Below are positions 4,103 to 26,662 of a stretch of 32,000 nt of DNA, one piece after another. The stretch covers positions 2,400,001 through 2,432,000 of the forward strand of contig OY759724.1 in assembly GCA_963662715.1 (NCBI GenBank), read 5' to 3'. A program made the translations under genes and the position numbers. Within the stretch, counting starts at the first letter, position 1. Every line of letters begins with the position of its first letter. The stretch is from Candidatus Omnitrophota bacterium (GTDB lineage Bacteria; Omnitrophota; Gorgyraeia; Zapsychrales; JANLHA01). A model generated the notes under the pieces. It was not told the origin of the DNA, did not search any database, and was given only the letters and a program-made list of their open reading frames with translations.

Positions 4103-4120
4103 ATATTTTACGATTTAACT

Positions 4121-6048: not shown

Positions 6049-6077
6049 TTGTCCCCCCGGAGGGGATATACTATAAT
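6049..6077 (+). promoter_or_regulatory. Candidate sigma70-type promoter (TTGTCC-N17-TATAAT)
   Basis: TTGTCC at 6049-6054, a 17-nt spacer, then a consensus TATAAT at 6072-6077. The first ATG of the giant ORF (6088) lies 11 nt after the -10 element. Confidence 0.35.
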
Positions 6078-6087
6078 TATTAGTACT

Positions 6088-10787: not shown

Positions 10788-10877
10788 GTGGATACATGTT
10801 TTATGATCCGTCCGGTCTGCCGTCGGATTGGGAAGGTGTTTGTTCCCGGTCCGGTGCCTGTATGAGTGAATAAACTT

Positions 10878-13135: not shown

Positions 13136-13160
13136 CAGGACGGGTTTTTACGGGCATAAT
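13126..13160 (+). promoter_or_regulatory. Hairpin with T-tract overlapping a TTGACA-N17-CATAAT promoter-like element
   Basis: CCCGTC (13126-13131) pairs with GACGGG (13139-13144), followed by TTTTT. TTGACA at 13132-13137 contains the aminotransferase stop codon; a 17-nt spacer leads to CATAAT at 13155-13160. Confidence 0.4.
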
Positions 13161-13254
13161 AGAAACTCTTTTAAATGGAAAGGGGATAGTCATCGGAGAT
13201 CCTTCGTCCGGAGAGTATGTCGCGGGGGTGAGGGGGTTCCGGGAGACAGCAGAA

Positions 13255-14244
13255 ATGAATATACTTGTTACCGGCGCGACCGGTTATGTCGGCCGCGCAC
13301 TGATTCCTCAATTATGTCAGGCAGGGCACAGCATCCGTATCCTGGCCCGGAAAACCAGTGATCTCAGCGCTTTTAAGGAATGCCGGAAGGCTCTGGAGGT
13401 CTTTTACGGTGATCTGCTTCAGGAAGAGACCCTCCGCGGCATAGGGGAGAATATCGACTATGTCTGTCATCTCGCAGGAGTGCTTCCCTATAGTCAAACA
13501 AAGGCCGAACATTATTATGACGTCAACAAGACAGGAAGCCTTAATTTGATAAAACAATTCGCCGGCAGCCGCGTAAAGAATTTCCTTTTCACGACCTCAA
13601 CCGCTTCTTTGGGAGCGATATCGAAAGATATCGTTACTGAGAATGATTTCAGTCCTCCGATCGCCGATTACGGGAAATCCAAGTATGCCGCGGAACTCGC
13701 CATAAGAGAATTTGCGGAAAAACAGGCCATCCCGTATACAATGGCCCGTTTAACGCATATTTACGGGCCCGGAGAAACCCGGGACCTTTACCGTATGGTC
13801 AAAATGATGAAAAAGGGCATTTTCCCGCAGATCGGGTTCAAACCGAATCTTTATCCGGCTGTTTATATCGACGATGCCGTTAACGGGATTATCAGGGTGT
13901 TGGAACGCGGCCGGCCAGGGGAAACCTATATTATTACGGATAAAGAGTCGCATGATACGCGTCTGATCCGGAAGTATGTCCTGCAATATCTGAGCCTCAA
14001 GAAATCCTTGTATCCTTTCTTGCCCAAATATTTATCCTTACTCATTTTTTCGATACTCGATATAATATCTGATATGAGCGGGGTCAAGTTTCCGGCCACC
14101 AGGAAAAACATCCAGTTCCTGAGTGCCGGCAGAAGGTTCAGCATTGAAAAGGCCCGGAAGGAACTGGGATATGTCCCGCAAGTCCCGTTAAAAGAAGGCT
14201 TGAGAAAAACCATAGAATATTATCTTCAGGAGGGATTAATATGA
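13255..14244 (+). CDS. NAD-dependent epimerase/dehydratase (extended SDR)
   Basis: The ATG at 13255 gives MNILVTGATGYVGRAL, placing the Rossmann GxxGxxG at the N-terminus. The catalytic YGKSK (YxxxK) motif is present. The track ORF starts at TTG 13132, but those 41 extra residues have no SDR counterpart. Confidence 0.85.
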   Translation: MNILVTGATGYVGRALIPQLCQAGHSIRILARKTSDLSAFKECRKALEVFYGDLLQEETLRGIGENIDYVCHLAGVLPYSQTKAEHYYDVNKTGSLNLIKQFAGSRVKNFLFTTSTASLGAISKDIVTENDFSPPIADYGKSKYAAELAIREFAEKQAIPYTMARLTHIYGPGETRDLYRMVKMMKKGIFPQIGFKPNLYPAVYIDDAVNGIIRVLERGRPGETYIITDKESHDTRLIRKYVLQYLSLKKSLYPFLPKYLSLLIFSILDIISDMSGVKFPATRKNIQFLSAGRRFSIEKARKELGYVPQVPLKEGLRKTIEYYLQEGLI

Positions 14245-15047
14245 GCGACCAGCCGGTAGAGCGTGATGTGGAAGTTGAAGGCTTTGGGGTTTCCTATGAT
14301 CGTCAGGTTGTTTTTTTTCATCAGCATATTTTGACCCGGGAGCTGAATCTGAAAACCATCCTCGAAATGCCTTCCAAGGGGGATAAGGCGGAATCTTCCA
14401 TTTATTCCATTGGCTTTGCCAAGGCGGGGTGCGACGTTACGGTTGCCAATTTTGAGGAAAGGACCAGGAAATACTGGCAGGAACTGGATATCGAGCAGCA
14501 TCTAAAAACCAGGGATGTGGCGGATTATGCGAAGACGGATTTCCCCGATAATGAATTTGATCTGACCTGGAACTACTGCACCTTTGCCGGCCTGCCGGAC
14601 AAAGACGCTTATATTCAAGAGATGATGCGTGTGAGTAAAAAGTATGTTTTGTTGCTCTGCGGCAACAATTTTCAGTTAGGTTATGTGATTCACAAGGCTG
14701 TTCATTTCCTTTACAAATTTCCTTGGACTCACGGAGACACTCATTACACGTTTCTGGGAAATGTCAGGGACCTGCTCACCCGCAACGGCCTTAAGATAAA
14801 AGAATGCGGGACCATTGATTCGCCGCCGTGGCCGTCGCCTGTCGGTTTCAGGGACGTCAGGCTTCATAAAAAAGGCATCAGCAAAACAAATTATCTTTGG
14901 GAGGTCCCGAGCATCCGGTACATGAAGAGCGGACAATTCCCTCTTTGGATGAACCTTATCCGGTTTTATGATATCCCCCTGCGGAAAGGGTACTGGAAAT
15001 TGCCTTTTTCACATATGTTTTATTTAATCGGGGAGAAGCAGGCATAG
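14241..15047 (+). CDS. Class-I methyltransferase-fold-like protein with degenerate SAM loop
   Basis: 268 aa. The order of elements resembles a Rossmann-type methyltransferase: ILEMPSKGD, CDVTVANFEE, FDLTWNYCTF, KYVLLLC. The GxGxG motif is absent. The start overlaps the SDR stop by 4 nt. Confidence 0.5.
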   Translation: MSDQPVERDVEVEGFGVSYDRQVVFFHQHILTRELNLKTILEMPSKGDKAESSIYSIGFAKAGCDVTVANFEERTRKYWQELDIEQHLKTRDVADYAKTDFPDNEFDLTWNYCTFAGLPDKDAYIQEMMRVSKKYVLLLCGNNFQLGYVIHKAVHFLYKFPWTHGDTHYTFLGNVRDLLTRNGLKIKECGTIDSPPWPSPVGFRDVRLHKKGISKTNYLWEVPSIRYMKSGQFPLWMNLIRFYDIPLRKGYWKLPFSHMFYLIGEKQA

Positions 15048-15053
15048 ATTAAA

Positions 15054-16199
15054 ATGAAACTTACGGATTTTCTTACGGAAATATTCCCGAAGACGCTTAA
15101 TTATCGTCTGGCCCGGATGGGCCTTCTCAAGCCCGTCCGCCCGGTCACTCTGACATATTCCGTGACCGGGGCCTGTAATTCGCTCTGTAAAACCTGCGCG
15201 ATCGGGGAAATGTGCCGGAAAGACCCGCAGCGTCTTAAGCAGGACTTGACGTTAGATGAAATTGAAAAAATCTTTAAGTCCATCGGACATGTTTATTTTT
15301 TTAATGTCAGCGGAGGAGAGCCTTTTTTAAGAAAAGACCTGTTTGAGATCGTCGCGTTGGCCTGTAAATATCTGACGCCCCGCATTGTGCATGTCCCCAC
15401 AAATGCTATCCTTTCCCAGCGGATTTATGACGACTCTAAGCGTATCCTGGACTTTCTGAAGCAGGATTTTCCTCAGGTTCAGTTCTCGGTAAAGCCCTCC
15501 ATTGACGGAGTGGGGGATCGGCATGACGAAATCCGCGGCGTGCCGGGCAATTTTAAAAAGCTGGAAAAGACCATTTCCCTGCTCAAAGAGCTTGAGAAAG
15601 ATTATCCTAATTTCCACCTGGAGCTGGGAACTGTTATTTCGCAGTTCAACATTCATCACCTGGATGAAATTGAAAATTATGTCCATTCTGCCGGTATACA
15701 GAGTTACCGTAATGAAATCGCTGAACAGCGGGAAGAATTTTATAATATCGGCGACCCGATTACCCCTTCCGGGGAGGATTATGAGCGGCTGATGAAGAGG
15801 TTTAAAGAGAAAGTTAAGGAGAATATCAAGGGGAAAAAGAGATTGGCCCAGGTCACGGAAGCCCTGCGGCTGACCTATTATGATATCGCCGTTAGGATCA
15901 TGAAAGAAAAAAGACAGGTGATCCCTTGTTATGCCGGTATATCCAATGTCCACCTGAATTATGACGGCCAACTCTGGCCGTGCTGTGTTCTGGGCTATGC
16001 CAAACCGCTGGGGAATCTGCGGGAGACCGGGTATGATTTTGATAGGATCTGGTTTTCCGAAAGGGCCAAGGCCGTAAGAACGTCTATCCGCAACAAAGAG
16101 TGCGCCTGTCCTTTGGCCAATCAGGCCTATTCCAATATCCTCTGTCATGCGCCTTCCATCATCAAATCCCTCAAACATCTGCTGACTTTAAAGAGATAG
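15054..16199 (+). CDS. Radical SAM enzyme with SPASM/twitch-like C-terminal Cys motifs
   Basis: CNSLCKTC (CX3CX2C) near the N-terminus and a VSGGEPFL SAM-binding block. The C-terminal CYAGISNVHLNYDGQLWPC fits CX9-15GX4C, followed by CC and CAC...C. Confidence 0.9.
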   Translation: MKLTDFLTEIFPKTLNYRLARMGLLKPVRPVTLTYSVTGACNSLCKTCAIGEMCRKDPQRLKQDLTLDEIEKIFKSIGHVYFFNVSGGEPFLRKDLFEIVALACKYLTPRIVHVPTNAILSQRIYDDSKRILDFLKQDFPQVQFSVKPSIDGVGDRHDEIRGVPGNFKKLEKTISLLKELEKDYPNFHLELGTVISQFNIHHLDEIENYVHSAGIQSYRNEIAEQREEFYNIGDPITPSGEDYERLMKRFKEKVKENIKGKKRLAQVTEALRLTYYDIAVRIMKEKRQVIPCYAGISNVHLNYDGQLWPCCVLGYAKPLGNLRETGYDFDRIWFSERAKAVRTSIRNKECACPLANQAYSNILCHAPSIIKSLKHLLTLKR

Positions 16200-16284
16200 C
16201 CGACAGCCTGTTTTCGGTAGAAAATTGGCGGAAACGAAAAAAAATGAGCGCTCCTTTGTCATGATTGGGAATAAGGCAGCATGT

Positions 16285-16321
16285 AACCTCTTTTCATTTT
16301 TAGGTTTAAAGGGGTTTTTTT
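16285..16321 (+). terminator. Rho-independent terminator candidate
   Basis: AACCTCTTT (16285-16293) pairs with AAAGGGGTT (16308-16316), giving 9 bp including one G-U pair. The loop is 14 nt and a T-run follows to 16321. Lies 86 nt after the radical SAM stop. Confidence 0.45.
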
Positions 16322-16371
16322 GTCCGGCCGATAACCGGTTCTTTCTCTTCAGTATGTTGTAAATATATTTA

Positions 16372-16400
16372 TTGACAATGGTTTATGAATTTGCTACCAT
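16372..16400 (+). promoter_or_regulatory. Candidate promoter (TTGACA-N17-TACCAT)
   Basis: A consensus -35 at 16372-16377, a 17-nt spacer and a 4/6 match -10 at 16395-16400. It would give a leader of about 210 nt before the GT2 gene. Confidence 0.35.
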
Positions 16401-16613
16401 TATTATTTCGGCTTGTAGCCTGTCTTTAGGGCCATAGAAAGGGGCCAGGTAAGATCACGTGCCGGGAACAAGTCCCTGTATAAAGATTCGATGCCCCTGG
16501 CTTATAAGCATATTTCATGATATACACAATATTATATATAGCCGGCAGGTTGAGCGCGCGCAATGTCCAGGGGAGTCTATTTTTAACATAATCTACGATA
16601 AGGTTTTGGCCAA

Positions 16614-17597
16614 ATGAGTGAAATCATGTTTTCTGTTGTCATCCCGTTATACAATAAAGAGGCTTATATTAAGAGGACGATCGATTCTGTCCTGGAGCAG
16701 TCCTGCCGGAATTTCGAGTTGATTGTTGTTGATGACGGCTCTACGGATAAGAGTCATGAAAAAGTCCGGGAATACACCGATGAACGTATCCGTTTGATCC
16801 GGCGGGAAAACGGGGGGGAATGCGCGGCAAGGAATACAGGGATTGAGTCTGCGAAGTACCCGTATCTCGCTTTCCTGGATGCTGATGATAAATGGACCCC
16901 CGATTTCCTTGCGACGGTCCTGCAGCTTATTGAAAAATATCCGGAGGCGGGCGCTTATGTCACTTCCATGGACAAGGTGAACGTGCGGGGGGAGCGAAAA
17001 AGGCGGAAGATACACGGTGTTCCCACGGAGAAAACCGGGGACGGATTGATCGAAAATTTTTTCAAAAGTATCGCTTATGGGTTGCCGCCTATTATGCCGA
17101 GTTGTGTGTGTATCCCCAAGCGTGTTTTTGATGAAGTCGGGACATTTCCGGCCGGCGTCAAGAGGAACGGTGAGACAGAGGTTTGGTTAAAGGTGGCATT
17201 AAAGTACCCCGTGGCCTATAGCCCGAAGGTATGCGCTGTCTATCACCGGGATGTTGATGACAGCATTTGCAATAAATACCTTCCGGCTAAAATTCCGTTT
17301 GAAAAGATCATCCTTGATGCGATTGCCCAGGGGAAGATCGATAAAGAATCCGAGATTTATGCCCTGGAATTACTGGCCAAGATGAACCATATCTATGCGG
17401 GAAGGTATTTGATGGCCAATAAAACAGAACTGGCCCGCGACTGGCTAGGGAGGGTCAAGACGATCCGTATTTTATTGAAGATCAAAGTCTTCGCGTTATA
17501 CGTTCTGTCATATTTGCCGTATCCTTTCATTAAATGGGTCGGCTTCCATTTCGGGGATATGAAGGCCGAATTTGAGGAAATGGAGACTTTGCCATAA
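16614..17597 (+). CDS. Glycosyltransferase, GT2 family
   Basis: FSVVIPLYNKEAYIKRTIDSVLEQS, ELIVVDDGSTD and AFLDADD (the DXD motif) are typical of the GT-A fold. Confidence 0.9.
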   Translation: MSEIMFSVVIPLYNKEAYIKRTIDSVLEQSCRNFELIVVDDGSTDKSHEKVREYTDERIRLIRRENGGECAARNTGIESAKYPYLAFLDADDKWTPDFLATVLQLIEKYPEAGAYVTSMDKVNVRGERKRRKIHGVPTEKTGDGLIENFFKSIAYGLPPIMPSCVCIPKRVFDEVGTFPAGVKRNGETEVWLKVALKYPVAYSPKVCAVYHRDVDDSICNKYLPAKIPFEKIILDAIAQGKIDKESEIYALELLAKMNHIYAGRYLMANKTELARDWLGRVKTIRILLKIKVFALYVLSYLPYPFIKWVGFHFGDMKAEFEEMETLP

Positions 17598-17679
17598 CGT
17601 TATTTGTTGTCAGTTGCTCGGGACGGGATGTCCTGGTCCGAACACCGGGAGCGGACAGGGGGAAGATACCTGGTCTTTA

Positions 17680-19146
17680 ATGAATAAGAAAATACTAACA
17701 AATACTTTTTTTTATACAATTGTAACTTTTTTACCGCTGACCTTGAACTATTTTGTGTTGCCGTTCTTGACCCGGTATATGTCGGCGGCTGATTTTGGAA
17801 TTGTTTCTTTGGTCGGATCCCTGGTTAGCTTTTTGACGGTCCTTTTCGGGCTGCAAATGCATTCAGGCGTCAATAGGTTGATTTTTGATTATAAAGGAGA
17901 CGATAGAAAAAGTTATTTTTCCTCCCTGTTCTGGGCCATCACCCTGGTTTCCTTCCTTTTTTTGGCCATTTTTTTTGCAAGCGGAAATTTCTTGCGTAAA
18001 ATTCTTTTCTATAAAAACGATCTGGGCTTCTATCCCTACCTTTTCATCGCCGGTTTAAAAATTTTCTTTGCATTGCCCCTTTTGGTGACCCACCGTTTCT
18101 TTCGGGTCCTCGAGAAAGCCAAAATACTGGTCGTCATAACGTTTCTGACATCCACATTCAGTGTCGCGGTCACCCTGCTTTTTGTGATTCATTACAGGTT
18201 AGGGGCGACGGGTGCGTTGTCGGGGATTTTGGCCGGCACGGTCCTGACCTACCTTTGTCATCTGTATCACTTCCGTAAAATGCTGGTTTTGAAGTTCGAT
18301 AAGGATATGTTTCTGGAAAATCTGAAGTTCGGAATTCCTGCCATCCCGCATGGATTGGGAGGCTATTTATTCTTGTTCTCCGATAGAATCATTTTGGAGA
18401 AATTCGTGCCCCTGTCCGTGATTGGCGTCTATTCTATAGCCGATACATTTTCAATATTGTTGAAGCATATCGTCAATTCTTTTGACTTGTCGATACGGCC
18501 GATATTTATGAAGAAATGCCTGGGCTCGATTTCTGACGGGGTTGATTTTGCCCAGAGAATGTCCAGAGTTTGGTTTATTGGGCTGGGAGCGGCATATTTT
18601 GCAATATGTTTTTTCGGTGAGCTGATAATTAAACTCATGACCCCGCAGGAATTCCACGGCGCCGTTAACCTGCTGCCCATCCTGGCGTTGTGCTATGTTT
18701 TAAGAGGCATTTATATTTTTCCCCTCTATACATTTTATTTTCAGAAAAAAACGAAATACCTGTCTGCCATCACATTGCCGAGCGGCTTGCTTAACATCAT
18801 ATTCAATTTCATTCTAATCCCCTTAATCGGGGTCTACGGGGCCGCCCTGACCACTCTGGGGAGTTTTGTCTTTAATCTGACTTTTGCCAGGATCTACAGT
18901 AAGAACACCTTCAGGATCAACTTTTCTCCGCAGTCGATTTTAGCCCTTGTGCTCTTATGCGCTTTTACGATCATTCCGCATTGGATCATCCCGTTTGATA
19001 ATCTCGCTCTCCGCATGGTTCTGAAGCTTGCGATGTTCTTGTCAATAATATTCGTGATGTTGGCGTTAGATATCGGAGGAATAAGAGGGATGTTTAAAAA
19101 AATATTTCTCAAGGGGTCGTTGTTATTTACGGCCAGGGGGTGTTGA
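17680..19146 (+). CDS. wzx: Wzx-like polysaccharide/oligosaccharide flippase (polysaccharide biosynthesis protein family)
   Basis: From ATG 17680 the protein is 488 aa with about 12-14 hydrophobic spans, an architecture typical of Wzx/MOP exporters. The 36 residues upstream in the track ORF are non-hydrophobic and overlap the GT2 end. Confidence 0.75.
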   Translation: MNKKILTNTFFYTIVTFLPLTLNYFVLPFLTRYMSAADFGIVSLVGSLVSFLTVLFGLQMHSGVNRLIFDYKGDDRKSYFSSLFWAITLVSFLFLAIFFASGNFLRKILFYKNDLGFYPYLFIAGLKIFFALPLLVTHRFFRVLEKAKILVVITFLTSTFSVAVTLLFVIHYRLGATGALSGILAGTVLTYLCHLYHFRKMLVLKFDKDMFLENLKFGIPAIPHGLGGYLFLFSDRIILEKFVPLSVIGVYSIADTFSILLKHIVNSFDLSIRPIFMKKCLGSISDGVDFAQRMSRVWFIGLGAAYFAICFFGELIIKLMTPQEFHGAVNLLPILALCYVLRGIYIFPLYTFYFQKKTKYLSAITLPSGLLNIIFNFILIPLIGVYGAALTTLGSFVFNLTFARIYSKNTFRINFSPQSILALVLLCAFTIIPHWIIPFDNLALRMVLKLAMFLSIIFVMLALDIGGIRGMFKKIFLKGSLLFTARGC

Positions 19147-19148
19147 TC

Positions 19149-19898
19149 ATGAGAGACCGTGTTTTTAATAAGAAAAGTAAGATCGGGGATTTTGTGTTTG
19201 ATAAAAAGGTGGCAGATGTTTTTGACGATATGGTCAACCGCAGTGTCCCCAACTACAATGAAATCCAGCGTATGATTATTGAACAGTCTCTGCAATTCAT
19301 AAAACCTAAAACGAAGGTTTATGACTTGGGGTGTTCCACGGCCACAACGTTGTCTCTTTTGGCGAAAAATGTCGATGCGCGGTCTGTGACTTTTGTCGGT
19401 GTGGATAATTCCAGGCAAATGATCGCTAAGGCTGGCGAAAAGCTGCGAAAACACCGGCTGACCAACAGGGTGAAATTGCTCTGTGAGGACATTGTTAAAG
19501 TTAATGTCCAGAACAGTTCTGCCGTCATTATGACATTTACGCTGCAGTTTGTCAGGCCCCTGTACCGCGACGAATTGATCAGAAAAATTTATAATGGACT
19601 GACAGACGGAGGGTGCCTTCTTGTCGTTGAGAAAATTTTAGCGGATAATTCCATGCTTAACCGGCTTTATATTGACTATTACTATAATTATAAGAGAAGA
19701 AGGGCATACTCGGAAATGGAAATCTCGCAGAAAAGAGAGGCTTTGGAGAATGTTCTCGTTCCTTATCGGGCTTCGGAGAATATGGAGCTATTCACCAGGA
19801 ATGGTTTTGAAATTGCTGATATGTTTTACAAATGGTATAATTGGGCTGGCTTTATTGCGATCAAGCACAAAATATCCGGTTCTTCCAATAAGAAATAA
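19149..19898 (+). CDS. cmoA: Carboxy-S-adenosyl-L-methionine synthase (CmoA) orthologue
   Basis: Collinear by eye with E. coli CmoA over the whole length. Matching blocks are GDFVFDKKVADVFDDMVNRSVPNY, KVYDLGCS, VDNSRQMI, MTFTLQFVRP, IYNGLTDGGCLLVVEK, YSEMEISQKREALENV and NWAGFIAIK. The ATG lies 3 nt after the wzx stop, with an AGGGGG SD at 19135-19140. Confidence 0.85.
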   Translation: MRDRVFNKKSKIGDFVFDKKVADVFDDMVNRSVPNYNEIQRMIIEQSLQFIKPKTKVYDLGCSTATTLSLLAKNVDARSVTFVGVDNSRQMIAKAGEKLRKHRLTNRVKLLCEDIVKVNVQNSSAVIMTFTLQFVRPLYRDELIRKIYNGLTDGGCLLVVEKILADNSMLNRLYIDYYYNYKRRRAYSEMEISQKREALENVLVPYRASENMELFTRNGFEIADMFYKWYNWAGFIAIKHKISGSSNKK

Positions 19899-19973
19899 AA
19901 TAGCATGTGATATGTTGGGAGGGTGTTTTATTTTTTGTTTCTAAAATTATAAAGTTTTTAGAGGAGGATTGTC

Positions 19974-20822
19974 ATGTCCTTGAAAAAAAATCTTTTGAAG
20001 TTGAGCGCGCCTTTATGGGGGCTTCTTAAAATCCCGCATACCAATGATAGTATGCAATTTGAGGACTTTTATCATGACCTGAACATGCCGCTCATGGACG
20101 AGAACGAATATATCAGAACAGTCATGAACAGCATGTCTGATGAGGATATCATTTATCAGAAGGGGGAAAACCCCGAACGGGTGTTTAAAGACGGTGATTC
20201 TTTTATCCCGCGTAAGGGTTTAATCCTTATGGGAAAATATTTCATCGCCAAGAGACTGGAGCTCATCAAAAAGTATTCTAGTGATCTGGATCATAAAAGC
20301 CTGCTTGACGTGGGGGCAACGAGCGATGTCTTTTTCCGCTTCCTGAACAAGACCGGGGTGGGAGTCAATATTTCAGAAAGAGCTGTTCAGTACATGAAAG
20401 ACAAAGGAATCGAAGCTTTCGTAGGAAACGCCGAAGATCTCCAGTTCGGGGATAACAGTTTTGATTATTTGTTTTGCTTCGAAACCATAGAGCATTTGGA
20501 GAATCCAGTCCGATCCCTCCGTGAGCTCAAACGGGTTGCCAAAGAGGCGATCTTTATCACTATTCCCAACGTGCGGAAAACCAATTTGTGCACTTTTGAG
20601 TTCAAAGACCGGGGGATGCACCGGTGGCATTTCCTGGAGTTCAATAAAGAAGACTTTAAGAGAATCCTGAGTCGTGTCGGACTAAAGGTCGAATATGAGT
20701 TCGTTATCCGTCCCTTTGGAAAACCCAGGACATGGCGTCAAAAACTCTTTGTATATAGATGGAGAAATCATCCGTGGTTTATGGGTTTTGTTTTTATGAA
20801 AGTGAGTCCTGATGAATCGTAA
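19974..20822 (+). CDS. Class-I methyltransferase-fold protein (Methyltransf_11-like) with non-canonical motif I
   Basis: GAGGAGGA SD upstream. Blocks are LLDVGATSDVFFRFL (in place of GxGxG), NAEDLQFGDNSFDYLFCFETIEHLENP and AIFITIPN. The 3' end overlaps the neuB-like start by 11 nt. Confidence 0.7.
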   Translation: MSLKKNLLKLSAPLWGLLKIPHTNDSMQFEDFYHDLNMPLMDENEYIRTVMNSMSDEDIIYQKGENPERVFKDGDSFIPRKGLILMGKYFIAKRLELIKKYSSDLDHKSLLDVGATSDVFFRFLNKTGVGVNISERAVQYMKDKGIEAFVGNAEDLQFGDNSFDYLFCFETIEHLENPVRSLRELKRVAKEAIFITIPNVRKTNLCTFEFKDRGMHRWHFLEFNKEDFKRILSRVGLKVEYEFVIRPFGKPRTWRQKLFVYRWRNHPWFMGFVFMKVSPDES

Positions 20823-21633
20823 AATTAAAATCATCGCTGATCTCTCATCCAATCACATGGGAGACATTGACCTTGCCGAAAAAATGATAACGCGGGCAGC
20901 TGAAGCCGGGGTTGATTGCGTGAAACTCCAGTCCTGGCAAGCCGATCATCTCAGCAAAAATTTTAAGGGAGATTATGAGGCGACGTATCAGCGTCATAAA
21001 AAAACGGAGTTGTCCAACGACGACCATTATCGTTTGATGGAATTTTGCCGGCGTGCCGGAGTGGAGTTCCTGACGACGTGTTTCGACGTGGATAGAGTGG
21101 ACTTTCTCGCTTCCTTAGGGCTTAAGACCATTAAAGTCGCTTCCCCTGATTGCACGAGCAGGAGGCTTTTAAACAGACTGATGGAGAAATTCGAACAAAT
21201 CATTATTTCGACCGGAATGACGACAGATCAGGAGATAATCGAGACAGTCAAGTTCCTGGGAAATTATAATTATATCATGTTGCATTGCGTCTCCATTTAC
21301 CCGACCCCTCTGGGATCCTGCCACCTGAACCGGATCAATTGGCTCAAATCGCACGGCGCGGCCAGAGTCGGATTCAGTGATCATTCCGTCGGTGTCGAAG
21401 CCAGCATGGCGGCTATGACGATGGGTGTTGAAATTGTTGAGAAACATTTGACTTTGGACAAGTCTCTGCCAGGAAAAGACCAGGCCATGTCAACGACCCC
21501 GGAAGAGTTCCGCGAGATCTGCCGCTGGCGGGACCTCGCGGAGAAAATGCTGGGGGAGGAGAACCCGCCACTTTCTGAGGATGAAAAGGCGCTGAGGGAG
21601 ATATATATCGGGAAATGGGGGGATAATAAATGA
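20812..21633 (+). CDS. neuB: NeuB/LegI/PseI-family nonulosonic acid synthase, TIM-barrel only with no SAF domain
   Basis: IIADLSSNHMGDIDLAEKMITRAAEAGVDCVKLQSW, IKVASPD, LHCVSIYPTP, GFSDHSVG and VEKHLTLDK. At 273 aa it ends where the SAF/AFP-like domain of canonical NeuB would begin. Confidence 0.88.
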   Translation: MNRKIKIIADLSSNHMGDIDLAEKMITRAAEAGVDCVKLQSWQADHLSKNFKGDYEATYQRHKKTELSNDDHYRLMEFCRRAGVEFLTTCFDVDRVDFLASLGLKTIKVASPDCTSRRLLNRLMEKFEQIIISTGMTTDQEIIETVKFLGNYNYIMLHCVSIYPTPLGSCHLNRINWLKSHGAARVGFSDHSVGVEASMAAMTMGVEIVEKHLTLDKSLPGKDQAMSTTPEEFREICRWRDLAEKMLGEENPPLSEDEKALREIYIGKWGDNK

Positions 21634-22784
21634 CAAACATGCGAAAAATTTGTGTTGTGATTACCAGCCGGGCCAGTTACGCAAGAGTCAAATACTTGCT
21701 GAAAGCGATCCAGGCCCACCCGGAACTGGAACTGCAGCTCATCGTCGGAGCCTCAATCATGCTTTTCCGTTTTGGCAAAGCCATCGATATCATTCGTGAG
21801 GATGGGTTCGAGCCCGTTCGTACGATTTATTCTATTGTGGAAGGGGAAAGCCTGAACACCCAGGCCAAGTCAACCGGATTGGGTATCATTGAACTGGCCA
21901 CGGCCTTTGAACATCTCCGGCCCGATGTGGTTGTGACTGTGGCGGACAGATTTGAAACGATGTCAACAGCGCTGACGGCCAGTTATATGAACATCCCCTT
22001 GGCCCATGTCCAGGGGGGAGAGGTGAGCGGAAATATTGATGACTCTGTCCGGCACGCCATCACAAAGCTCGCGCATATTCATTTCCCTTCTACTCAAAAA
22101 AGCGCGGAAAGGGTGCTGCGGATGGGAGAGGAACCCTGGCGTGTGCATATGACGGGTTGCCCCAGCATTGATATCTTGAAACATGAAGATCTGACGGATT
22201 ACGCTTCTGTGTTGCAGAAATATGGCGGGGTTGGCCAATCCCTTGATTTGGGCCAGCCGTACATCCTGATGCTACAGCACCCCGTAACGACATCTTTTGG
22301 CCAGGGCTTTGGACAGATCAACAGCACTTTGGAGGCTTTGAAAAAACGTCCTGAGCAAAAGATTGTTTTATGGCCCAATATTGATGCGGGCAGCGATGAT
22401 GTGGCAAAAGGGATTAGATCATTCCGAGAAAGAAACAGGGACCTTAATTTTCATTACTACCGCAATTTTTCACCCGAAGATTATGCCCGTATCCTGAAAA
22501 ACGCCGTCTGCGCCGTTGGCAACAGCAGCTCCTTTATCCGTGAGGGGGCAGCTTTGGGGACGCCGGTGGTGATCGTCGGAGACCGCCAGGAAGGGCGGGA
22601 GCACGGCCAAAATGTTGTTTATTCGGGATATGATTGTGATGAAATTTTTGCCAAAATCGGGCAACAGGTGTCCCACGGTTCCTATGAGCCTGATTTGATT
22701 TTCGGGGACGGGAAGGCCGGGCAACGCATGGCGGACCTCCTGGCAAGAGTTGAACTGAAAATAAGGAAGTATATCACATTTTAA
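21630..22784 (+). CDS. neuC: UDP-N-acetylglucosamine 2-epimerase, hydrolysing type (NeuC/LegG family)
   Basis: KICVVITSRASYARVKYLL, VVTVADRFETMSTALTASYMNIPLAHVQGGEVSGNIDDSVRHAITKLAHIHF and GNSSSFIREGAALGTPVV. ATGA overlap with the preceding gene. Confidence 0.9.
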   Translation: MTNMRKICVVITSRASYARVKYLLKAIQAHPELELQLIVGASIMLFRFGKAIDIIREDGFEPVRTIYSIVEGESLNTQAKSTGLGIIELATAFEHLRPDVVVTVADRFETMSTALTASYMNIPLAHVQGGEVSGNIDDSVRHAITKLAHIHFPSTQKSAERVLRMGEEPWRVHMTGCPSIDILKHEDLTDYASVLQKYGGVGQSLDLGQPYILMLQHPVTTSFGQGFGQINSTLEALKKRPEQKIVLWPNIDAGSDDVAKGIRSFRERNRDLNFHYYRNFSPEDYARILKNAVCAVGNSSSFIREGAALGTPVVIVGDRQEGREHGQNVVYSGYDCDEIFAKIGQQVSHGSYEPDLIFGDGKAGQRMADLLARVELKIRKYITF

Positions 22785-22817
22785 CTTCGATTTAATTTTA
22801 ACCCGGGAGAATTTTTT

Positions 22818-23621
22818 GTGAAAGGACCAATATTTATCGGGGGATTGATGAAGTCAGGAACGTCTCTTTTAAGAGTGCTCCTGGCCAAACATCCCAATAT
22901 TTTCGGCGGATTGGAAACCCACTGGTTTTCTGATGACATTATCGTGGACTGGAAGGACTCGTCTTCTAAGAGACAACGATATCTCAGGGAATTTTTTGAT
23001 GTCAATGATTCCGAATTCGAAAAGATCAAATCCGAGGCATCCGATGGCGTGGATTTCTTTGACAGGTTTATGTTGTTTTGTGCCCGGCGTGATTCTAAGA
23101 ACCGCTGGGTTGAGAAAACACCGGACAATATTCTGCATATTTCGTCCATCAGGAAAAACTGGCCTGACGCGAAATTTATTCATGTCATGAGAGATCTCCG
23201 CGACATATACGCCAGCTGGAAGTCAAAAAAGAATATGGATATTGAGGCATTTCTTGCCAAAGCCCATGAGGTCTATGCCGGGCTTGAAGGAGTTGTCGGC
23301 AGGCCCGATGATTTTTACTTGGAAATCAACTATAATGACCTTGTTCTTGATACGAGGCGGACCATTGAGCGCGTTTTAAATCACATTGATGAGCCCTGGG
23401 TCGATGGGCTGGATTCAACCAGCGGGGATTCCGGCGAGTTTGAAAAGGTCTTGAAGATTACGGGGAAGGAAAGCGCAACTTTGAGTGCGTTGAAGCAGCC
23501 CATATTCTCCAGTTCTATTGGACAATGGGAAGATATCCTGAGTCAGGAAGAGTCTGATAGGATTGAGCGGGAGCTGGCCCCTTTTTGGGCGGCTGTATGG
23601 CAGTCCCGTATGGCCCATTGA
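22818..23621 (+). CDS. Sulfotransferase-family protein (PAPS-dependent)
   Basis: GTG start with a GGGAGA SD at 22804-22809. GGLMKSGTSLL matches the 5'-phosphosulfate-binding loop, and EKTPDNILH with HVMRDLRDIYASW matches the 3'-phosphate-binding region. Confidence 0.8.
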   Translation: MKGPIFIGGLMKSGTSLLRVLLAKHPNIFGGLETHWFSDDIIVDWKDSSSKRQRYLREFFDVNDSEFEKIKSEASDGVDFFDRFMLFCARRDSKNRWVEKTPDNILHISSIRKNWPDAKFIHVMRDLRDIYASWKSKKNMDIEAFLAKAHEVYAGLEGVVGRPDDFYLEINYNDLVLDTRRTIERVLNHIDEPWVDGLDSTSGDSGEFEKVLKITGKESATLSALKQPIFSSSIGQWEDILSQEESDRIERELAPFWAAVWQSRMAH

Positions 23622-23685
23622 TACTTAGCTGTTCCGGTGATGTTCCGAAATATTAAATCAAAAATCTACTGGCAATTTACTGTAT

Positions 23686-24624
23686 ATGTCTTTTTCCTCT
23701 GAAAGCCCCAAGCTAACCGTTGTCATGTTCCATTATATACGGGATTACAGCCGGACTCCGTTTCCCCGTATTAAGGGTATGGCTATCGAAGATTTCACGC
23801 TTCTGCTTAGAAAACTGAAGGATATTTATGAGATGGCCTCGCTCGAAGCTGCCTTGTCTTTTATCTCCGGAGACTATTCGCCCTCCCGGGATCTCTGTCT
23901 CCTGACTTTTGACGACGGGCTTAAAGACCACTATCACATAACCCCTTTACTCGCTGAAAATAAAGTGGCAGGTCTTTTTTTTGTCACAACGAAATGCATT
24001 GAACAGGGGCATGTTGCCAGTGTTCATAAAAATCATTTCCTGATGGCGAAATTGGATTTCCCTGATTATAAGAAATCCTTTATTGATCGTTTGATGTCTC
24101 TGAACCGGGAACTTGATATGACCGTCAGCAGCGAGGAGGCCCGGAAAACCTACCGGTGGGACTCGCCGGAAGTCGCGGAATTCAAGTATTTTCTAAACTT
24201 CCGCGTTCCGTCCGATTTGTGCCGTCGGGTTATTGATGAGCTTTTTGAGGCTGTCTTCGGCCCGGAAGAAGATTTTGCGAGAGATTTGTATCTCTCGTGG
24301 GACGAGGTCCGCGCCATGCAGGAAGAGGGGATGGTGATCGGGGGACATACGCATAATCATCTGGCCTTGTCTTCTCTGGATTATGCTGTCCAGGAAAAAG
24401 ACCTGCGGACCTGTCACGACCTGTTAAAAAGCCGTTTAAGCCCTCAGGCGTTGTGGCCCTTTTCCTATGCGTACGGCAAAAGAAATTCATTTAATTCTGA
24501 CAGTGTCCGAATACTCAAGGACATCGGCTTCTGCTGTTCTTTTGCAACGGAGGTCGGAATAAATTCCGTAAATACGGACCGGTTCTGTATCGGAAGGATT
24601 GATCCCAAGGATGTAGACTTATGA
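23686..24624 (+). CDS. Polysaccharide deacetylase (CE4 / NodB-homology) family protein
   Basis: LTFDDGLKDHY (CE4 motif 1, with the Asp-Asp pair) and GGHTHNH (the His motif). 312 aa. Confidence 0.8.
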   Translation: MSFSSESPKLTVVMFHYIRDYSRTPFPRIKGMAIEDFTLLLRKLKDIYEMASLEAALSFISGDYSPSRDLCLLTFDDGLKDHYHITPLLAENKVAGLFFVTTKCIEQGHVASVHKNHFLMAKLDFPDYKKSFIDRLMSLNRELDMTVSSEEARKTYRWDSPEVAEFKYFLNFRVPSDLCRRVIDELFEAVFGPEEDFARDLYLSWDEVRAMQEEGMVIGGHTHNHLALSSLDYAVQEKDLRTCHDLLKSRLSPQALWPFSYAYGKRNSFNSDSVRILKDIGFCCSFATEVGINSVNTDRFCIGRIDPKDVDL

Positions 24625-25331
24625 TAAGAGAATGCCTTGCCATTATTCCTGCTCGTGGGGGGTCTAAAGGGATCCCGAAAAAAAATTTAAGAGAATTATG
24701 CGGGAAACCCTTAATCCAATTCACTTTTGATGCCGCTAAGAAAAGCCGTCTTTTGACCCGTATCCTCTTGTCGACGGATTCCGAAGAGATTGCCGGTTTT
24801 GGCCGTTCGGAAGGGATTGACGTCCCGTTTCTTCGCCCGGCAGAGCTGGCGCGGGATGAGACGCCGACTCTGCCGGTTATTCAGCATGCCTTGTCGTATC
24901 TTAAGGATTCGGAAGACTACTCACCCCAAATTGTCGTTATGTTGCAGCCGACGGCCCCTTTGCGAAGTTCACAGAACATCGATGAGGCGGTAGAGCTCCT
25001 GATTTCCTCCCAGGCAGACTCTGTCGTGAGTGTTTGCGAGGTCCCCGGCCACTATAATCCTCATTGGCAGTTTGTTATAGAAGATAATAAGCTGAAAATT
25101 TTTACGGGGGAATCTTTCCCGGAGCTTATCAGCCGCAGGCAAATTCTCCCCAAAACGTTCACCAGAAACGGTGCGATATATGCGTATCACGCAGATAATT
25201 TGAATAAATATGCATCGATTTATGGATGGCATTGTGTGCCTTACATTATGTCCGGCGAACAATCTGTCAATATTGACAGCTGGGAAGACTGGTTGCTGGC
25301 CGAACTGCGATTGAAAGAATCGGACGGTTAA
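24621..25331 (+). CDS. neuA: Acylneuraminate cytidylyltransferase (CMP-nonulosonic acid synthetase, NeuA/LegF family)
   Basis: AIIPARGGSKGIPKKNLRELCGKPLIQ, LQPTAPLR and RRQILPKTFTRNGAIY. ATGA overlap with the CE4 gene. Confidence 0.9.
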   Translation: MIRECLAIIPARGGSKGIPKKNLRELCGKPLIQFTFDAAKKSRLLTRILLSTDSEEIAGFGRSEGIDVPFLRPAELARDETPTLPVIQHALSYLKDSEDYSPQIVVMLQPTAPLRSSQNIDEAVELLISSQADSVVSVCEVPGHYNPHWQFVIEDNKLKIFTGESFPELISRRQILPKTFTRNGAIYAYHADNLNKYASIYGWHCVPYIMSGEQSVNIDSWEDWLLAELRLKESDG

Positions 25332-25339
25332 ATCTGCTT

Positions 25340-26662
25340 ATGAAATCTGTTGACCTTTTGATTTTTATTGAACATATTGCCCGGGAACTGGATGTCGCCT
25401 GTGCTATCAAGTGTTTAATGGAAAAGAATCATCATGTTTCCGTGGAAATCGCGTCGATAGTCTATGACTTGAAATCTACCCTTAAGAAATTCCGTCCGAA
25501 GGTCGTGGTTGTCCCTTTTTGCTATTCGGCCTTTGATTGGGGATTGATTGATGTTATTTCTGCGTGGCGTGATGCGGTTTATGTCAATTTCTGTTACGAG
25601 CAGGTTTATCGAAAAATATACAAGAAGATCAAGGCCCCCAAGGATGATTTTGCCAAACAACACGCTGTTCATCTTGTCTGGACTCAGGCTTTTGCGGATT
25701 ATTTGAAAGAAAACGGCGTGCATGAAAAGAATGTGTTTTGTAACGGGAACCTGAATTTTTCTTTTTATGGTCAGCCTTACTCCGTGGCCTATGTTTCCCG
25801 GGAAGACCTTGCCGCCCGGTATGCCCTTGATCCGGCAAAACGTTGGGTGTTTATCCCGGAGAATTACCGCGCAGCCTTTTATAAAAACAGCGATATCAAA
25901 AAGCTGGCCAAGCGTGGTTTTGGAACGGATCGTGCGCAAATGTATTATGAACTTATGGTCGATTCTTTTCAGGAGGTCGTGCGTTGGTGGTATCAAGCGG
26001 CTGAATCAAAGGACGTGGAACTCATTATTAGGCCGCGGCCGACCAATCCCCGGTCTATATTCCTGAAATCGTTGGTCAAGATCGCCGGGGAAAAACCAGA
26101 ACACCTCCACATCATTAAAGACGGGACTGTTAAGGAATGGATTATGGCCAGTGATGTTGTGATGTCTTCATACAGTACGGTATTGATGGAAGCTGCTTTG
26201 GCAGAAAAACCGGTCTACATCATGCTGCCTTTTCCTTGTCCTGAGTTTTTGTCATCCGATTGGTATGATTTGGTGCCCAAAGTTACGGACTTCGGAGGTT
26301 TCCAGGCTGCCGTTAGCCGTCCTGCTTCAGAGTCTGGCTGGGAACCCCTGCATGCTTATGTTAAAGAGAATATGATGGGGCAGGGTGATCCGATAGCTTT
26401 TGCCGCAAACCTGTTGAATGATGTTGTAGGAAAAAAAAGCGGGATGAGATTGTTGCCTCCCGGGGAGGTCATCGGCCGACAGATCTCGAGCTTTTCCTTA
26501 TGGCAAACTAAGGCTGAATATGCCTGGAGCCGCTTCAAACGGACCCCCCAGGTGAGTGCGCTAAGAGCGCGTCTGGGGAGGATTAACCTGTGGGAAAAAG
26601 ACAGGTTGTCCGGGGACGCGCTTGATCAGCGGCTTCTCCTGTGGAGAAGGATTTTGAAATAA
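25340..26662 (+). CDS. Uncharacterised GT-B-like surface-carbohydrate biosynthesis protein (candidate nonulosonate transferase)
   Basis: A 440-aa ORF starting 8 nt after neuA. It has an N-terminal IFIEHIARELD block and a C-terminal half with WVFIPEN, LIIRPRP and SSYSTVLMEAALAEKPVYIM, resembling the GT-B nucleotide-sugar-binding half. The functional assignment is tentative. Confidence 0.45.
   Translation: MKSVDLLIFIEHIARELDVACAIKCLMEKNHHVSVEIASIVYDLKSTLKKFRPKVVVVPFCYSAFDWGLIDVISAWRDAVYVNFCYEQVYRKIYKKIKAPKDDFAKQHAVHLVWTQAFADYLKENGVHEKNVFCNGNLNFSFYGQPYSVAYVSREDLAARYALDPAKRWVFIPENYRAAFYKNSDIKKLAKRGFGTDRAQMYYELMVDSFQEVVRWWYQAAESKDVELIIRPRPTNPRSIFLKSLVKIAGEKPEHLHIIKDGTVKEWIMASDVVMSSYSTVLMEAALAEKPVYIMLPFPCPEFLSSDWYDLVPKVTDFGGFQAAVSRPASESGWEPLHAYVKENMMGQGDPIAFAANLLNDVVGKKSGMRLLPPGEVIGRQISSFSLWQTKAEYAWSRFKRTPQVSALRARLGRINLWEKDRLSGDALDQRLLLWRRILK

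Follow-up and report, generated by a model that had tools for sequence, protein, structure and literature searches.

A conserved pairing of a CmoA-family gene with a rare methyltransferase-fold gene in nonulosonate glycan loci: a candidate carboxymethylation module

Carboxy-SAM (Cx-SAM) has few known uses, namely, in tRNA, in one RiPP-like pathway, in one peptidyl-nucleotide antibiotic, and in phage DNA. In the Escherichia coli system CmoA/CmoB (structures 4gek and 4qnu), which serves tRNA cmo5U34, a Cx-SAM synthase feeds a Rossmann-fold transferase. CmoB has been shown by ITC to bind Cx-SAM in preference. In CmoA, the carboxylate of the S-carboxymethyl group is held through a salt bridge by Arg199, a residue that ordinary SAM enzymes do not conserve, and Asn132 of the E. 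coli protein binds the methionine moiety through both its side chain and its main chain (PMC3663124); the prephenate site of CmoA is known from docking only (PMC10491745). In CmoB, the S-carboxymethyl group is held by Lys91, Tyr200, and Arg315 (PMC4482062). Other users of Cx-SAM have been described, including TglF of the 3-thiaglutamate pathway, the microcin C pathway of Bacillus (with MccS), and CmoX of phages (5-carboxymethylcytosine). In the TglE/TglF, MccS, and phage CmoA/CmoX systems, a CmoA works together with a transferase of its own (PMC10491745, PMC12783734). The statement of an earlier note on this DNA, that CmoB is the only characterized consumer, is therefore outdated. In TglE/TglF of Pseudomonas syringae and MccS of Bacillus amyloliquefaciens, a CmoA paralogue encoded in the cluster supplies a cluster-encoded transferase acting on a non-tRNA substrate (PMC10491745). 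In Synechococcus phage S-B43 (CmoA/CmoX, with CmoY), CmoA has been recruited together with a transferase of a normally SAM-using family, in which an Arg contacts the Cx-SAM carboxylate (PMC12783734). Moreover, ordinary class-I methyltransferases can use Cx-SAM, and one introduced Arg or Lys improves their selectivity (PMC7496830).

We analyzed a 32-kb window (the whole stretch of DNA under study) in the 3.36-Mb genome of an Omnitrophota bacterium, where a CmoA-family gene and a downstream methyltransferase-fold gene, termed MT here, lie within a co-directional glycan operon (Table 1). The locus shares with CmoA/CmoB the same first enzyme family, with Arg199 retained, and the same layout, in which a Cx-SAM synthase would feed a Rossmann-fold transferase, but its partner belongs to a different class-I family (16 to 18 bits on the CmoB models) and its context is glycan biosynthesis rather than tRNA modification. 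It resembles TglE/TglF and MccS in pairing an in-cluster CmoA paralogue with a cluster-encoded transferase and a putative non-tRNA substrate; the acceptors of those two systems are a peptide thiol and a peptidyl-nucleotide, whereas the cluster in the window is that of a nonulosonate-containing surface glycan. In addition, TglF is homologous to CmoB and retains Lys91, whereas the partner in the window is unrelated to CmoB. The phage system is similar in its recruitment of CmoA with a transferase of a normally SAM-using family; however, CmoX acts on DNA and is homologous to C5-cytosine methyltransferases, while the partner here is a small-molecule methyltransferase of the Methyltransf_11 type in a glycan locus, and the pair in the window has no adjacent ATP-dependent amide ligase.

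Table 1. Features of the glycan operon in the window
Feature	Position	Strand	Size or supporting match
Upstream part of co-directional glycan operon	10866..17597	+	Pfam matches
Wzx-type flippase directly 5' of cmoA	17572..19146	+	PF01943, 76.9 bits
CmoA-family carboxy-SAM (Cx-SAM) synthase	19149..19898	+	249 aa; TIGR00740 match
Rare class-I methyltransferase-fold protein (MT), candidate Cx-SAM-dependent carboxymethyltransferase	19974..20822	+	282 aa; PF08241
Short NeuB-family nonulosonate synthase	20812..21633	+	273 aa, without C-terminal SAF domain
NeuC-type hydrolysing UDP-GlcNAc 2-epimerase	21630..22784	+	TIGR03568, 367.8 bits vs 235.9
Sulfotransferase, variable slot of cassette	22818..23621	+	PF13469, 103.8 bits
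Polysaccharide-deacetylase-family protein	23686..24624	+	PF01522, 62.2 bits
CMP-nonulosonate synthetase (cytidylyltransferase)	24621..25331	+	PF02348, 86.5 bits
Surface-carbohydrate biosynthesis protein, putative nonulosonate transferase	25340..26662	+	TIGR04396 match below cut-off

With a NeuC-type 2-epimerase, a NeuB-family synthase, and a CMP-transferase in one operon, the locus contains a nonulosonate cassette of the Neu/Leg type, and its sugar would, judging from the encoded proteins, be of either the Neu or the Leg type. The NeuB-family protein matched PF03102 with 227 bits over the full domain and TIGR03569 with 222 bits, under the cut-off of 399.65, and the CMP-nonulosonate synthetase scored 168.4 bits on TIGR03584 (PseF), under the cut-off of 205.7. 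The putative nonulosonate transferase reached 78 bits on TIGR04396 and 89 bits on NF046086 (BFO_1060 glycosyltransferase), both sub-cut-off, and has a counterpart at the same position in three of the compared loci (L001, L004, and L008; L numbers denote loci found in other genomes). Counterparts of the deacetylase occur in L001, L008, and L165 and not in L004, and the slot of the sulfotransferase is taken by a formyltransferase in L001 and by a 367-aa uncharacterized protein in L165. The upstream part of the operon encodes GT4, GT2, DegT aminotransferase, and NAD epimerase/dehydratase proteins, a radical SAM/SPASM protein (15054-16199), and a further methyltransferase (14241-15047). None of these upstream genes recurs alongside the CmoA-MT pair in other loci, and they are context, outside the conserved module. 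The methyltransferase at 14241-15047, formerly suggested as an alternative partner of CmoA, was dropped as a Cx-SAM user, since no homologue of it accompanies the pair anywhere else.

The protein encoded at 19149-19898 scored 249.1 bits on the equivalog model TIGR00740 (CmoA; curated cut-off, 193.3) across model positions 1 to 239 of 239, and 180.8 bits on the enterobacterial-type CmoA model NF011995, whose cut-off of 285 was not reached; by sequence, it is a CmoA of the non-enterobacterial type. Its residues 2 to 240 aligned with the CmoA structures 1im8 (175 bits) and 4gek (168 bits), BLASTP against E. coli CmoA gave 35% identity (83/239) and 61% positives with 1 gap, and the blocks FDKKVADVFDDMVNRSVPNY, DLGCS, and YSEMEISQKREALENV are all present and aligned with CmoA, which bears out the collinearity with E. 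coli CmoA described in the earlier note. Arg199 and 10 of 12 further cofactor-contact residues (E. coli numbering) are retained, the latter being Tyr39, Asp62, Gly64, Ser66, Asp89, Asn90, Asp117, Ile118, Phe137, and Glu164; Ala70 and Asn132 are each replaced by Thr, and conservation extends to the lid helices. A TGA at 19144-19146 closes the wzx-like ORF, leaving 2 nt to the cmoA ATG at 19149, and within wzx, ∼10 nt 5' of this ATG, there is an AGGGGG, in agreement with the earlier reading of a start just after the wzx stop and a Shine-Dalgarno sequence inside wzx. No terminator-like site was found in the 75-nt spacer between cmoA and MT. Identity between the window CmoA and the CmoAs of four other Omnitrophota genomes was 51 to 53%, compared with 58 to 73% among those four; it is an outlier among Omnitrophota CmoAs and therefore does not look like the ordinary vertical copy of the phylum. 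Its closest homologue, P0002 (63% identity), has an EamA transporter gene next to it and not MT, so that closeness to the window CmoA does not predict pairing, and the best CmoA match among species-representative genomes (a set without the source genome) showed 56% identity. A tRNA-Ser(UGA) gene lies 10 kb from the window cmoA, and tRNA-Ser(UGA) is of the type that is typically a cmo5U substrate in E. coli.

Comparison across lineages revealed that a CmoA-family gene directly adjoined MT in all eight lineages with readable flanks (8/8). These lineages come from different phyla and show three gene arrangements: CmoA precedes MT in the window, an Elusimicrobia MAG (L001-3 and L006-7), L004, L005, and L009; MT precedes CmoA in L008 and L166/L167; and the two genes are convergent in L168. 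L165, whose contig starts 397 nt upstream of MT, is left out of the CmoA count, as is P0130. In L008, a CmoA HMM match on an 1,866-nt frame had the appearance of an MT-CmoA fusion, which was rejected, as the locus has two neighbouring genes that are read in different frames; the long frame is an artefact of high GC content, and the two genes stand next to each other in reversed order. The MT family itself is rare, with 12 proteins at an E value of ≤1e-5 in 5.8 billion clusters and only 3 family representatives (50%-identity clusters) above 270 bits among 1.84 billion, and no member was found in 185,579 species-representative genomes (a set without the source genome). No CmoA was found at the loci of MT relatives at a greater distance (≤39% identity; 0/76). 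Neither this MT nor CmoB occurred within 10 kb of the closest named-genome CmoAs (0/79 loci, searched with a four-sequence CmoA alignment), and CmoAs of this type do not follow the expectation that cmoA is normally located next to cmoB; NeuB/NeuA-like genes were present only in L096 among these 79 loci, 5 to 8 kb from its cmoA.

Thus, the co-location of CmoA with a transferase-fold gene in a non-tRNA biosynthetic locus is conserved across lineages, and comparative genomics strongly supports the earlier proposal that cmoA is wired into the glycan operon, with the downstream MT as the candidate Cx-SAM user and a sugar or nonulosonate as its target; recurrence of the pair, usually beside neuB, neuC, and neuA, also removes the doubt as to whether the synteny extends to relatives. 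A housekeeping cmoA for tRNA cmo5U34, placed in the glycan operon by chance next to an unrelated MT, would agree with the bona fide CmoA score and with the tRNA-Ser(UGA) gene 10 kb away; however, chance cannot explain the same very rare MT in 8/8 lineages against 0/79 and 0/76 in the controls, the protein is an outlier among the CmoAs of its phylum, and cmoA is translationally embedded between wzx and MT, all of which makes such an origin very improbable.

The CmoAs that accompany MT are themselves diverse. On TIGR00740, four of the eight, the window protein among them, scored 239 to 262 bits, over the cut-off, and the other four remained under it (151 to 172 bits), forming a divergent clade with 30 to 35% identity to the window CmoA. 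Arg199 is retained in seven of the eight, the L005 copy being shifted by one residue, and the window, L003, L004, L008, and L009 proteins have the Arg at the aligned position within SQKR. A monophyletic "glycan CmoA" clade was rejected, given that at least three groups can be told apart among the partner CmoAs (the window protein by itself; L003/L004/L009; and L008/L166/L168/L005), and either repeated recruitment or old divergence fits this pattern. The Asn132-to-Thr replacement in the window protein and the four divergent partners could be taken to mean that the CmoA-like protein makes a different SAM derivative or is itself a transferase, its product not being a carboxymethyl group. We consider this quite unlikely, considering that half of the partner proteins exceed the equivalog cut-off, that Arg199, which tells Cx-SAM binders from SAM binders (PMC3663124), is so widely kept, that Glu164, Tyr39, and the lid helices are conserved, and that the known dedicated paralogues TglE, MccS, and phage CmoA all make Cx-SAM (PMC10491745, PMC12783734).

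The MT protein belongs to the class-I SAM-dependent methyltransferase superfamily, as indicated by its PF08241 (Methyltransf_11) score of 56.7 bits (gathering score, 21.2) and by an AlphaFold2 model (pLDDT, 85.1) with an alternating strand/helix core. Its motif I reads LLDVGATSD, and its gene overlaps the NeuB-family gene by 11 nt, both as previously read from the sequence. Foldseek returned 836 PDB matches to the model at an E value of ≤0.001, those listed being methyltransferase-fold proteins, and the best of them (MitM, 3l8d, YcgJ, AtmM, and RebM, with TM-scores of ∼0.5) are generic small-molecule and sugar O-methyltransferases. The N-terminal domain of ∼100 residues is family-specific. A phmmer search with E. 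coli CmoB (query identical to 4qnu_A) detected no CmoB homologue in the window, as the earlier note had stated, and no CmoB was found beside any of the eight CmoA-MT pairs. MT scored 16.1 bits on TIGR00452 and 17.9 bits on NF011650 (vs 275 and 209, respectively), and hhalign aligned it with CmoB over the Rossmann core only (91 columns; probability, 75%), placing Glu173 opposite CmoB Tyr200 and giving no aligned counterpart for the regions of Lys91 and Arg315. Moreover, the CmoB-specific N-terminal domain is absent, and no CmoB structure was among the 50 best Foldseek PDB matches. A relationship of MT to CmoB was thus ruled out by model scores, hhalign, and Foldseek, all of which were negative.

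Paralogues of MT without CmoA (L010 to L085, and the second MT in L004 and L005) share with it the core fold, the motif I variant, NIS, ETxEHLxNP, and His219, which is conserved across the whole family, but their identity to the window MT is 20 to 39%, and CmoA is absent from their vicinity; we presume them to be ordinary SAM methylases. Arg80, Arg94, and Arg217 are specific to the CmoA-linked subfamily, with Asp/Glu/Gln or Ile/Thr at these positions in the CmoA-free paralogues. The adjacent MT could itself be an ordinary SAM-dependent sugar methyltransferase, with the Cx-SAM going to some other enzyme encoded in the locus or elsewhere in the genome; in one version, another transferase would add the carboxymethyl group and MT would methyl-esterify it, as CmoM does for cmo5U. 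Such a role would suit its structural neighbours, which are ordinary SAM methyltransferases, among them two that O-methylate sugars, RebM and AtmM, and the unrecognizable CmoB carboxylate triad, as well as the second, paralogous MT beside the pair in L004 and L005, which implies two MT steps in some loci, and the additional methyltransferase at 14241-15047. We nonetheless regard it as unlikely: MT alone accompanies CmoA in every case, neither the window nor the Elusimicrobia locus has the second paralogue, the 14241-15047 gene is without a counterpart elsewhere, the eight lineages share no other candidate transferase, and the existence of CmoA-free paralogues indicates that an ordinary methylase of this fold needs no CmoA.

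The surroundings of the pair point to the nonulosonate pathway. Six lineages have >4 kb of readable flank, and in five of them neuB and neuC come directly after MT or the pair. In the window, L001, L004, and L008, the genes flanking the pair are neuB, neuC, neuA, and one for a TIGR04396-type transferase, and in L165 a member of the MT family is followed by neuB, neuC, and the deacetylase gene. The overlap between MT and neuB seen in the window recurs in L001, with 4 nt. In the Elusimicrobia locus and L004, the module comes directly after wzm-wzt, with a C-terminal carbohydrate-binding domain in Wzt, and a carboxymethylated sugar, if made, could there serve as a chain-terminating cap recognized by the exporter. 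In L005, as far as it is readable, the pair lies beside GT4 genes and Wzx, with no neuB, and no neuB was found in the readable parts of the short contigs L009, L166, and L168. Together with the family-specific N-terminal domain of MT, these loci would be in keeping with a real CmoA-transferase pair whose acceptor is another repeat-unit sugar, a lipid carrier, a protein, or a small molecule. Against this stand the regular position of neuB and neuC directly after MT or the pair, the translational coupling in the window and L001, and the location of many distant MT relatives near cytidylyltransferase genes, and such an acceptor seems rather improbable to us.

Considering these results, we think it probable, with some reserve, that CmoA and the new, non-CmoB transferase form a dedicated two-gene module that carboxymethylates a sialic-acid-like sugar or its glycan. 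In the first step, the CmoA of the window would convert SAM and prephenate to Cx-SAM, as suggested by its family membership and conserved cofactor-contact residues. In the second step, to which the strictly conserved gene pairing points, the MT protein would use Cx-SAM instead of SAM, and a hydroxyl or amine of the sugar would accept the carboxymethyl group in an SN2 attack, with release of SAH; His219 is a candidate base, and Arg80, Arg94, and Arg217 are candidate carboxylate binders. Because of the gene order of the locus, the most likely acceptor would be the sialic-acid-like nonulosonate from the translationally coupled neuB-neuC, or its precursor or glycan-bound form, after which NeuA would CMP-activate the sugar, the TIGR04396-type transferase would add it to the glycan, and Wzx would export it. 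The cell surface is thus predicted to carry a nonulosonate with an added carboxymethyl group (+58.005 Da). Carboxymethyl is absent from the nonulosonate modifications listed in PMC8157484, and no known product matches; a literature search for links of Cx-SAM or cmoA to glycans, or for O- or N-carboxymethyl nonulosonates, found nothing relevant. There is, in our estimate, about an even chance that the locus encodes an undescribed natural sugar modification, i.e., a carboxymethyl group (glycolic-acid ether or N-carboxymethyl) placed on a sialic-acid-like nonulosonate from Cx-SAM by a further, structurally independent class of transferase, which would have arisen from ordinary glycan methyltransferases via a few charge-switching substitutions.

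If this is true, the use of Cx-SAM would be extended to a further class of biomolecules, glycans being a new target, and a negatively charged, chemically addressable group would be added to the repertoire of nonulosonate modifications. MT appears to be a natural conversion of an ordinary class-I methyltransferase to a Cx-SAM user, which is an engineering goal (PMC7496830), and its CmoA-free paralogues allow a direct comparison with the CmoA-linked proteins. Moreover, the module would provide a first functional handle on the surface glycans of Omnitrophota and Elusimicrobia, both of which are uncultured phyla.

The open reading frame (ORF) that the earlier note had called CmoA, the enzyme making carboxy-SAM (Cx-SAM) from SAM and prephenate, scored 249.1 bits against TIGR00740 (curated cut-off, 193.3) over the full model and aligned along its entire length with two solved structures of CmoA, 1im8 and 4gek, which bears out that call. 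It shares 35% identity with Escherichia coli CmoA over 239 residues with one gap, and on sequence grounds its assignment is solid. Comparison with the cofactor-holding residues listed for E. coli CmoA by Byrne et al. (PMC3663124) revealed that Tyr39, Asp62, Gly64, Ser66, Asp89, Asn90, Asp117, Ile118, Phe137, Glu164, and Arg199 are identical, the last forming the salt bridge to the S-carboxymethyl carboxylate that marks Cx-SAM binders as opposed to ordinary SAM enzymes (PMC3663124), while Asn132 and Ala70 (a main-chain contact) are both replaced by Thr. Given this conservation and these substitutions, we rate Cx-SAM synthesis by the window protein only as likely.

The gene is part of a long run of glycan genes, all on the plus strand (positions 10866 to 26662; see the table). 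Only 2 nt separate the wzx TGA from the cmoA ATG, with a purine-rich stretch inside wzx; the next gene, encoding a 282-residue class I methyltransferase-fold protein (MT), shares 11 nt with neuB, which in turn shares 4 nt with neuC. The 75-nt cmoA-MT spacer contains no terminator-like site. Thus, a bona fide CmoA-family gene is embedded in a nonulosonate glycan operon, and the placement of both genes in this operon proposed earlier holds. The other methyltransferase of the operon and the radical SAM/SPASM protein behind it do not recur in other CmoA-MT loci and may perform a separate sugar-tailoring step. A multipass membrane protein encoded convergent to the operon end matches only YfhO, weakly and at its C terminus (22 bits, under the gathering score), and may be a membrane transferase linked to glycans.

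Coordinates of features in the window and in the compared loci
Locus	Feature	Position (strand)	Remark
Window	Giant ORF	6049-10707 (+)	1552 aa, TTG start
Window	GT4 glycosyltransferase	(+)	operon 5' part, first
Window	DegT aminotransferase	(+)	operon 5' part, second
Window	NAD epimerase/dehydratase	(+)	operon 5' part, third
Window	Methyltransferase	14241-15047 (+)	268 aa, weak PF08241
Window	Radical SAM/SPASM protein	(+)	381 aa, directly after methyltransferase; both genes, 14241-16199
Window	GT2	(+)	between radical SAM/SPASM gene and Wzx
Window	Wzx flippase	ends 19146 (+)
Window	CmoA	19149-19898 (+)	TIGR00740
Window	MT	19974-20822 (+)
Window	Short NeuB	20812-21633 (+)	PF03102 only
Window	NeuC	21630-22784 (+)	367.8 bits (cut-off, 235.9)
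Window	Sulfotransferase	22818-23621 (+)
Window	Polysaccharide deacetylase	23686-24624 (+)
Window	CMP-sugar synthetase	24621-25331 (+)
Window	TIGR04396-type surface-carbohydrate protein	25340-26662 (+)
Window	Membrane protein	26701-29151 (-)	816 aa
Window	tRNA-Ser(UGA)	29505-29593 (+)	ARAGORN
L001	wzm-wzt	7205-9278
L001	Short NeuB	10843-11661
L001	Formyltransferase	12820-13593
L004	wzm-wzt	1237-3366
L004	Extra methyltransferase	3363-4256
L004	Short NeuB	5971-6747
L005	Extra methyltransferase	12179-13078
L008	Extra methyltransferase	~11630-12578
L165	Extra methyltransferase	1-375
L165	Short NeuB	1295-2107
L165	Uncharacterised protein	3263-4366	367 aa, weak GNAT match
L122	CmoA, two copies	6121-6855; 11211-11945
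L171	Giant ORF	12084-19853	2589 aa

MT belongs to a very rare family. When 5.8 billion protein clusters were searched with a word index, 12 proteins were returned at an E value of ≤1e-5, 10 of them full-length homologues (46 to 57% identity). Among 1.84 billion representatives, searched exhaustively with a profile, three clusters exceeded 270 bits, and below them the scores of paralogues tailed off gradually; no member was found in 185,579 species-representative genomes. DNA flanks of the obtainable members were retrieved, and all ORFs were scored with the CmoA HMM and NCBIfam models. Among lineages with readable flanks, a CmoA-family gene directly adjoins MT in all eight, in three arrangements: CmoA then MT in the window, in an Elusimicrobia metagenome-assembled genome (MAG) with its metagenome twins (L001 to L003, L006, and L007; 4-nt gap), and in loci L004 (overlapping), L005 (with a divergent CmoA), and L009; MT then CmoA in L166/L167 and in L008, from a high-GC organism; and convergent genes in L168. 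Two further family members, P0130 and that of L165, whose contig starts 397 nt upstream of MT within another methyltransferase gene, lie outside this count. The CmoAs of the window, L003, L004, and L009 scored 239 to 262 bits against TIGR00740, and those of L005, L008, L166, and L168 scored 151 to 172 bits, under the cut-off, with CmoA as their only strong match.

Moreover, CmoA was absent from the fetched flanks of all 76 metagenome loci carrying distant MT relatives (20 to 39% identity), and MT was absent from the 79 loci in named genomes whose CmoAs are closest (48 to 56% identity; Bacteroidota, Verrucomicrobiota, Omnitrophota, Proteobacteria, and others). Pairing is thus a specific trait of this MT subfamily rather than a general one of either gene family. 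NeuB/NeuA-like genes occurred in a single control locus (L096, 5 to 8 kb from cmoA). The view that cmoA normally neighbours cmoB fails for this type of CmoA, since E. coli CmoB (identical to 4qnu_A) found no homologue within 10 kb in any of the 79 loci; the reported lack of CmoB in the window was confirmed by CmoB models and homologue search. One control locus, from Candidatus Brocadia sapporoensis (L122), carries two equal-scoring CmoA copies ∼5 kb apart on one contig, which could reflect a duplication or an assembly repeat. The co-occurrence of CmoA and MT is strict, specific, and independent of arrangement across at least eight lineages, and the two genes are very probably functionally coupled.

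In a confident AlphaFold2 model of MT built from the family alignment (pLDDT, 85; pTM, 0.85), ∼100 additional N-terminal residues precede a Rossmann core. Foldseek matched it in the PDB, at TM-scores of ∼0.5, to ordinary methyltransferases of small molecules, among them two sugar O-methyltransferases, RebM and AtmM. Membership in the CmoB family was ruled out, since no CmoB appeared among the 50 best PDB matches and a profile comparison aligned the core only, placing Glu173 opposite CmoB Tyr200. When 11 CmoA-linked MTs were compared with 11 CmoA-free paralogues, both sets shared the DVG motif I, Asn132-Ile133, Thr171, Glu173-His174-Leu175, and His219, while Arg80 (Asp/Glu/Gln in paralogues), Arg94 (Ile/Thr), and Arg217 (Glu/Gln/Asp), together with His216 and Cys206, were specific to the linked subfamily. 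The three gained arginines are suggestive of an added carboxylate to be accommodated; a single introduced Arg or Lys raises the Cx-SAM selectivity of an ordinary methyltransferase (Herbert et al., PMC7496830), and an Arg contacts the Cx-SAM carboxylate in phage CmoX (PMC12783734).

Downstream of the pair, the window, the Elusimicrobia locus, L004, and L008 all carry neuB, neuC, and genes for a CMP-sugar synthetase and a TIGR04396-type protein; in L165, neuB, neuC, and a deacetylase gene come after MT up to the contig end. L005 has GT4 genes and Wzx beside the pair, and its contig stops 2.4 kb past MT. Since NeuC lies far over its cut-off, known pathways point to a Neu- or Leg-type rather than a Pse-type nonulosonate. 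The NeuB beside the pair is mostly a short form (258 to 273 aa) with PF03102 as its sole domain; lacking the C-terminal SAF domain, it falls under the TIGR03569 and TIGR03586 cut-offs. The L008 NeuB is longer and has the C-terminal domain. Of these five loci, four encode a polysaccharide deacetylase. The slot separating neuC from the deacetylase is variable: it is occupied by a sulfotransferase (window), a formyltransferase (Elusimicrobia locus), or the uncharacterised protein (L165) and is empty in L004. This variation suggests that a de-N-acetylated sugar carries exchangeable substituents; by analogy, deacetylase plus sulfotransferase would resemble N-deacetylase/N-sulfotransferase logic. 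In addition, wzm-wzt genes directly precede the CmoA-MT-neuB cassette in L001 and L004. In characterised systems, the cap that terminates an O-polysaccharide chain is recognised by the Wzt_C domain. Wzt of the Elusimicrobia locus and of L004 bears this domain at its C terminus, so that a capping role is conceivable for the modified nonulosonate there; the window has the Wzx flippase instead. Extra methyltransferase genes also lie beside the pair in four loci, those of L004 and L005 being paralogues of the partner MT (32 to 36% identity) and those of L008 and L165 sharing a different kind with an N-terminal Cys-rich segment. In some loci, a methylation step may thus exist alongside carboxymethylation, or the new carboxyl group may be turned into a methyl ester.

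The window seryl-tRNA synthetase is 84 to 86% identical to Candidatus Omnitrophota MAG proteins, which places the DNA in an Omnitrophota genome. Four named Omnitrophota genomes carry CmoA without MT; these CmoAs share 58 to 73% identity with each other and 51 to 53% with the window CmoA, which therefore does not look like the ordinary copy of the phylum. Its closest database homologue, P0002 (63% identity; L169, 86-1743), has an EamA-family transporter gene, not the partner MT, next downstream. The partner CmoAs are not monophyletic, fitting repeated recruitment and old divergence alike. Locus L171, whose seryl-tRNA synthetase is 85% identical, keeps the window order (response regulator, HTH-cupin, LTD-domain protein, response regulator, and serS) up to a giant ORF downstream of serS, which in the window also follows a 194-aa ORF. 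The giant ORFs occupy the same position, neither has a Pfam match, and a different gene follows in L171, where the fetched flank stops, a divergence consistent with a variable glycan island. U34 family-box tRNAs are the type bearing cmo5U34 in E. coli. The tRNA-Ser(UGA), which belongs to this type, is encoded 10 kb from cmoA, probably by coincidence; it bears on whether the organism uses Cx-SAM on tRNA too.

Contrary to what had been stated earlier, CmoB (PMC4482062) is not the only characterised Cx-SAM consumer: others are phage CmoX, with its ligase CmoY (PMC12783734), TglF, and the microcin C pathway of Bacillus (both PMC10491745). Literature searches linking Cx-SAM or cmoA with glycans, polysaccharides, glycosyltransferases, or nonulosonates, and searches for O- or N-carboxymethyl nonulosonates, found nothing relevant, and carboxymethyl is absent from the nonulosonate modifications listed in PMC8157484. 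The window module would therefore share the known logic of CmoA plus a dedicated transferase but differ in a new transferase family and a putative new acceptor class. In line with the earlier note, the window CmoA would make Cx-SAM and the partner MT would transfer its carboxymethyl group to a nonulosonate or its glycan. We consider this full model of Cx-SAM-dependent carboxymethylation in a nonulosonate glycan pathway reasonably probable, and its prediction is specific and cheap to test.
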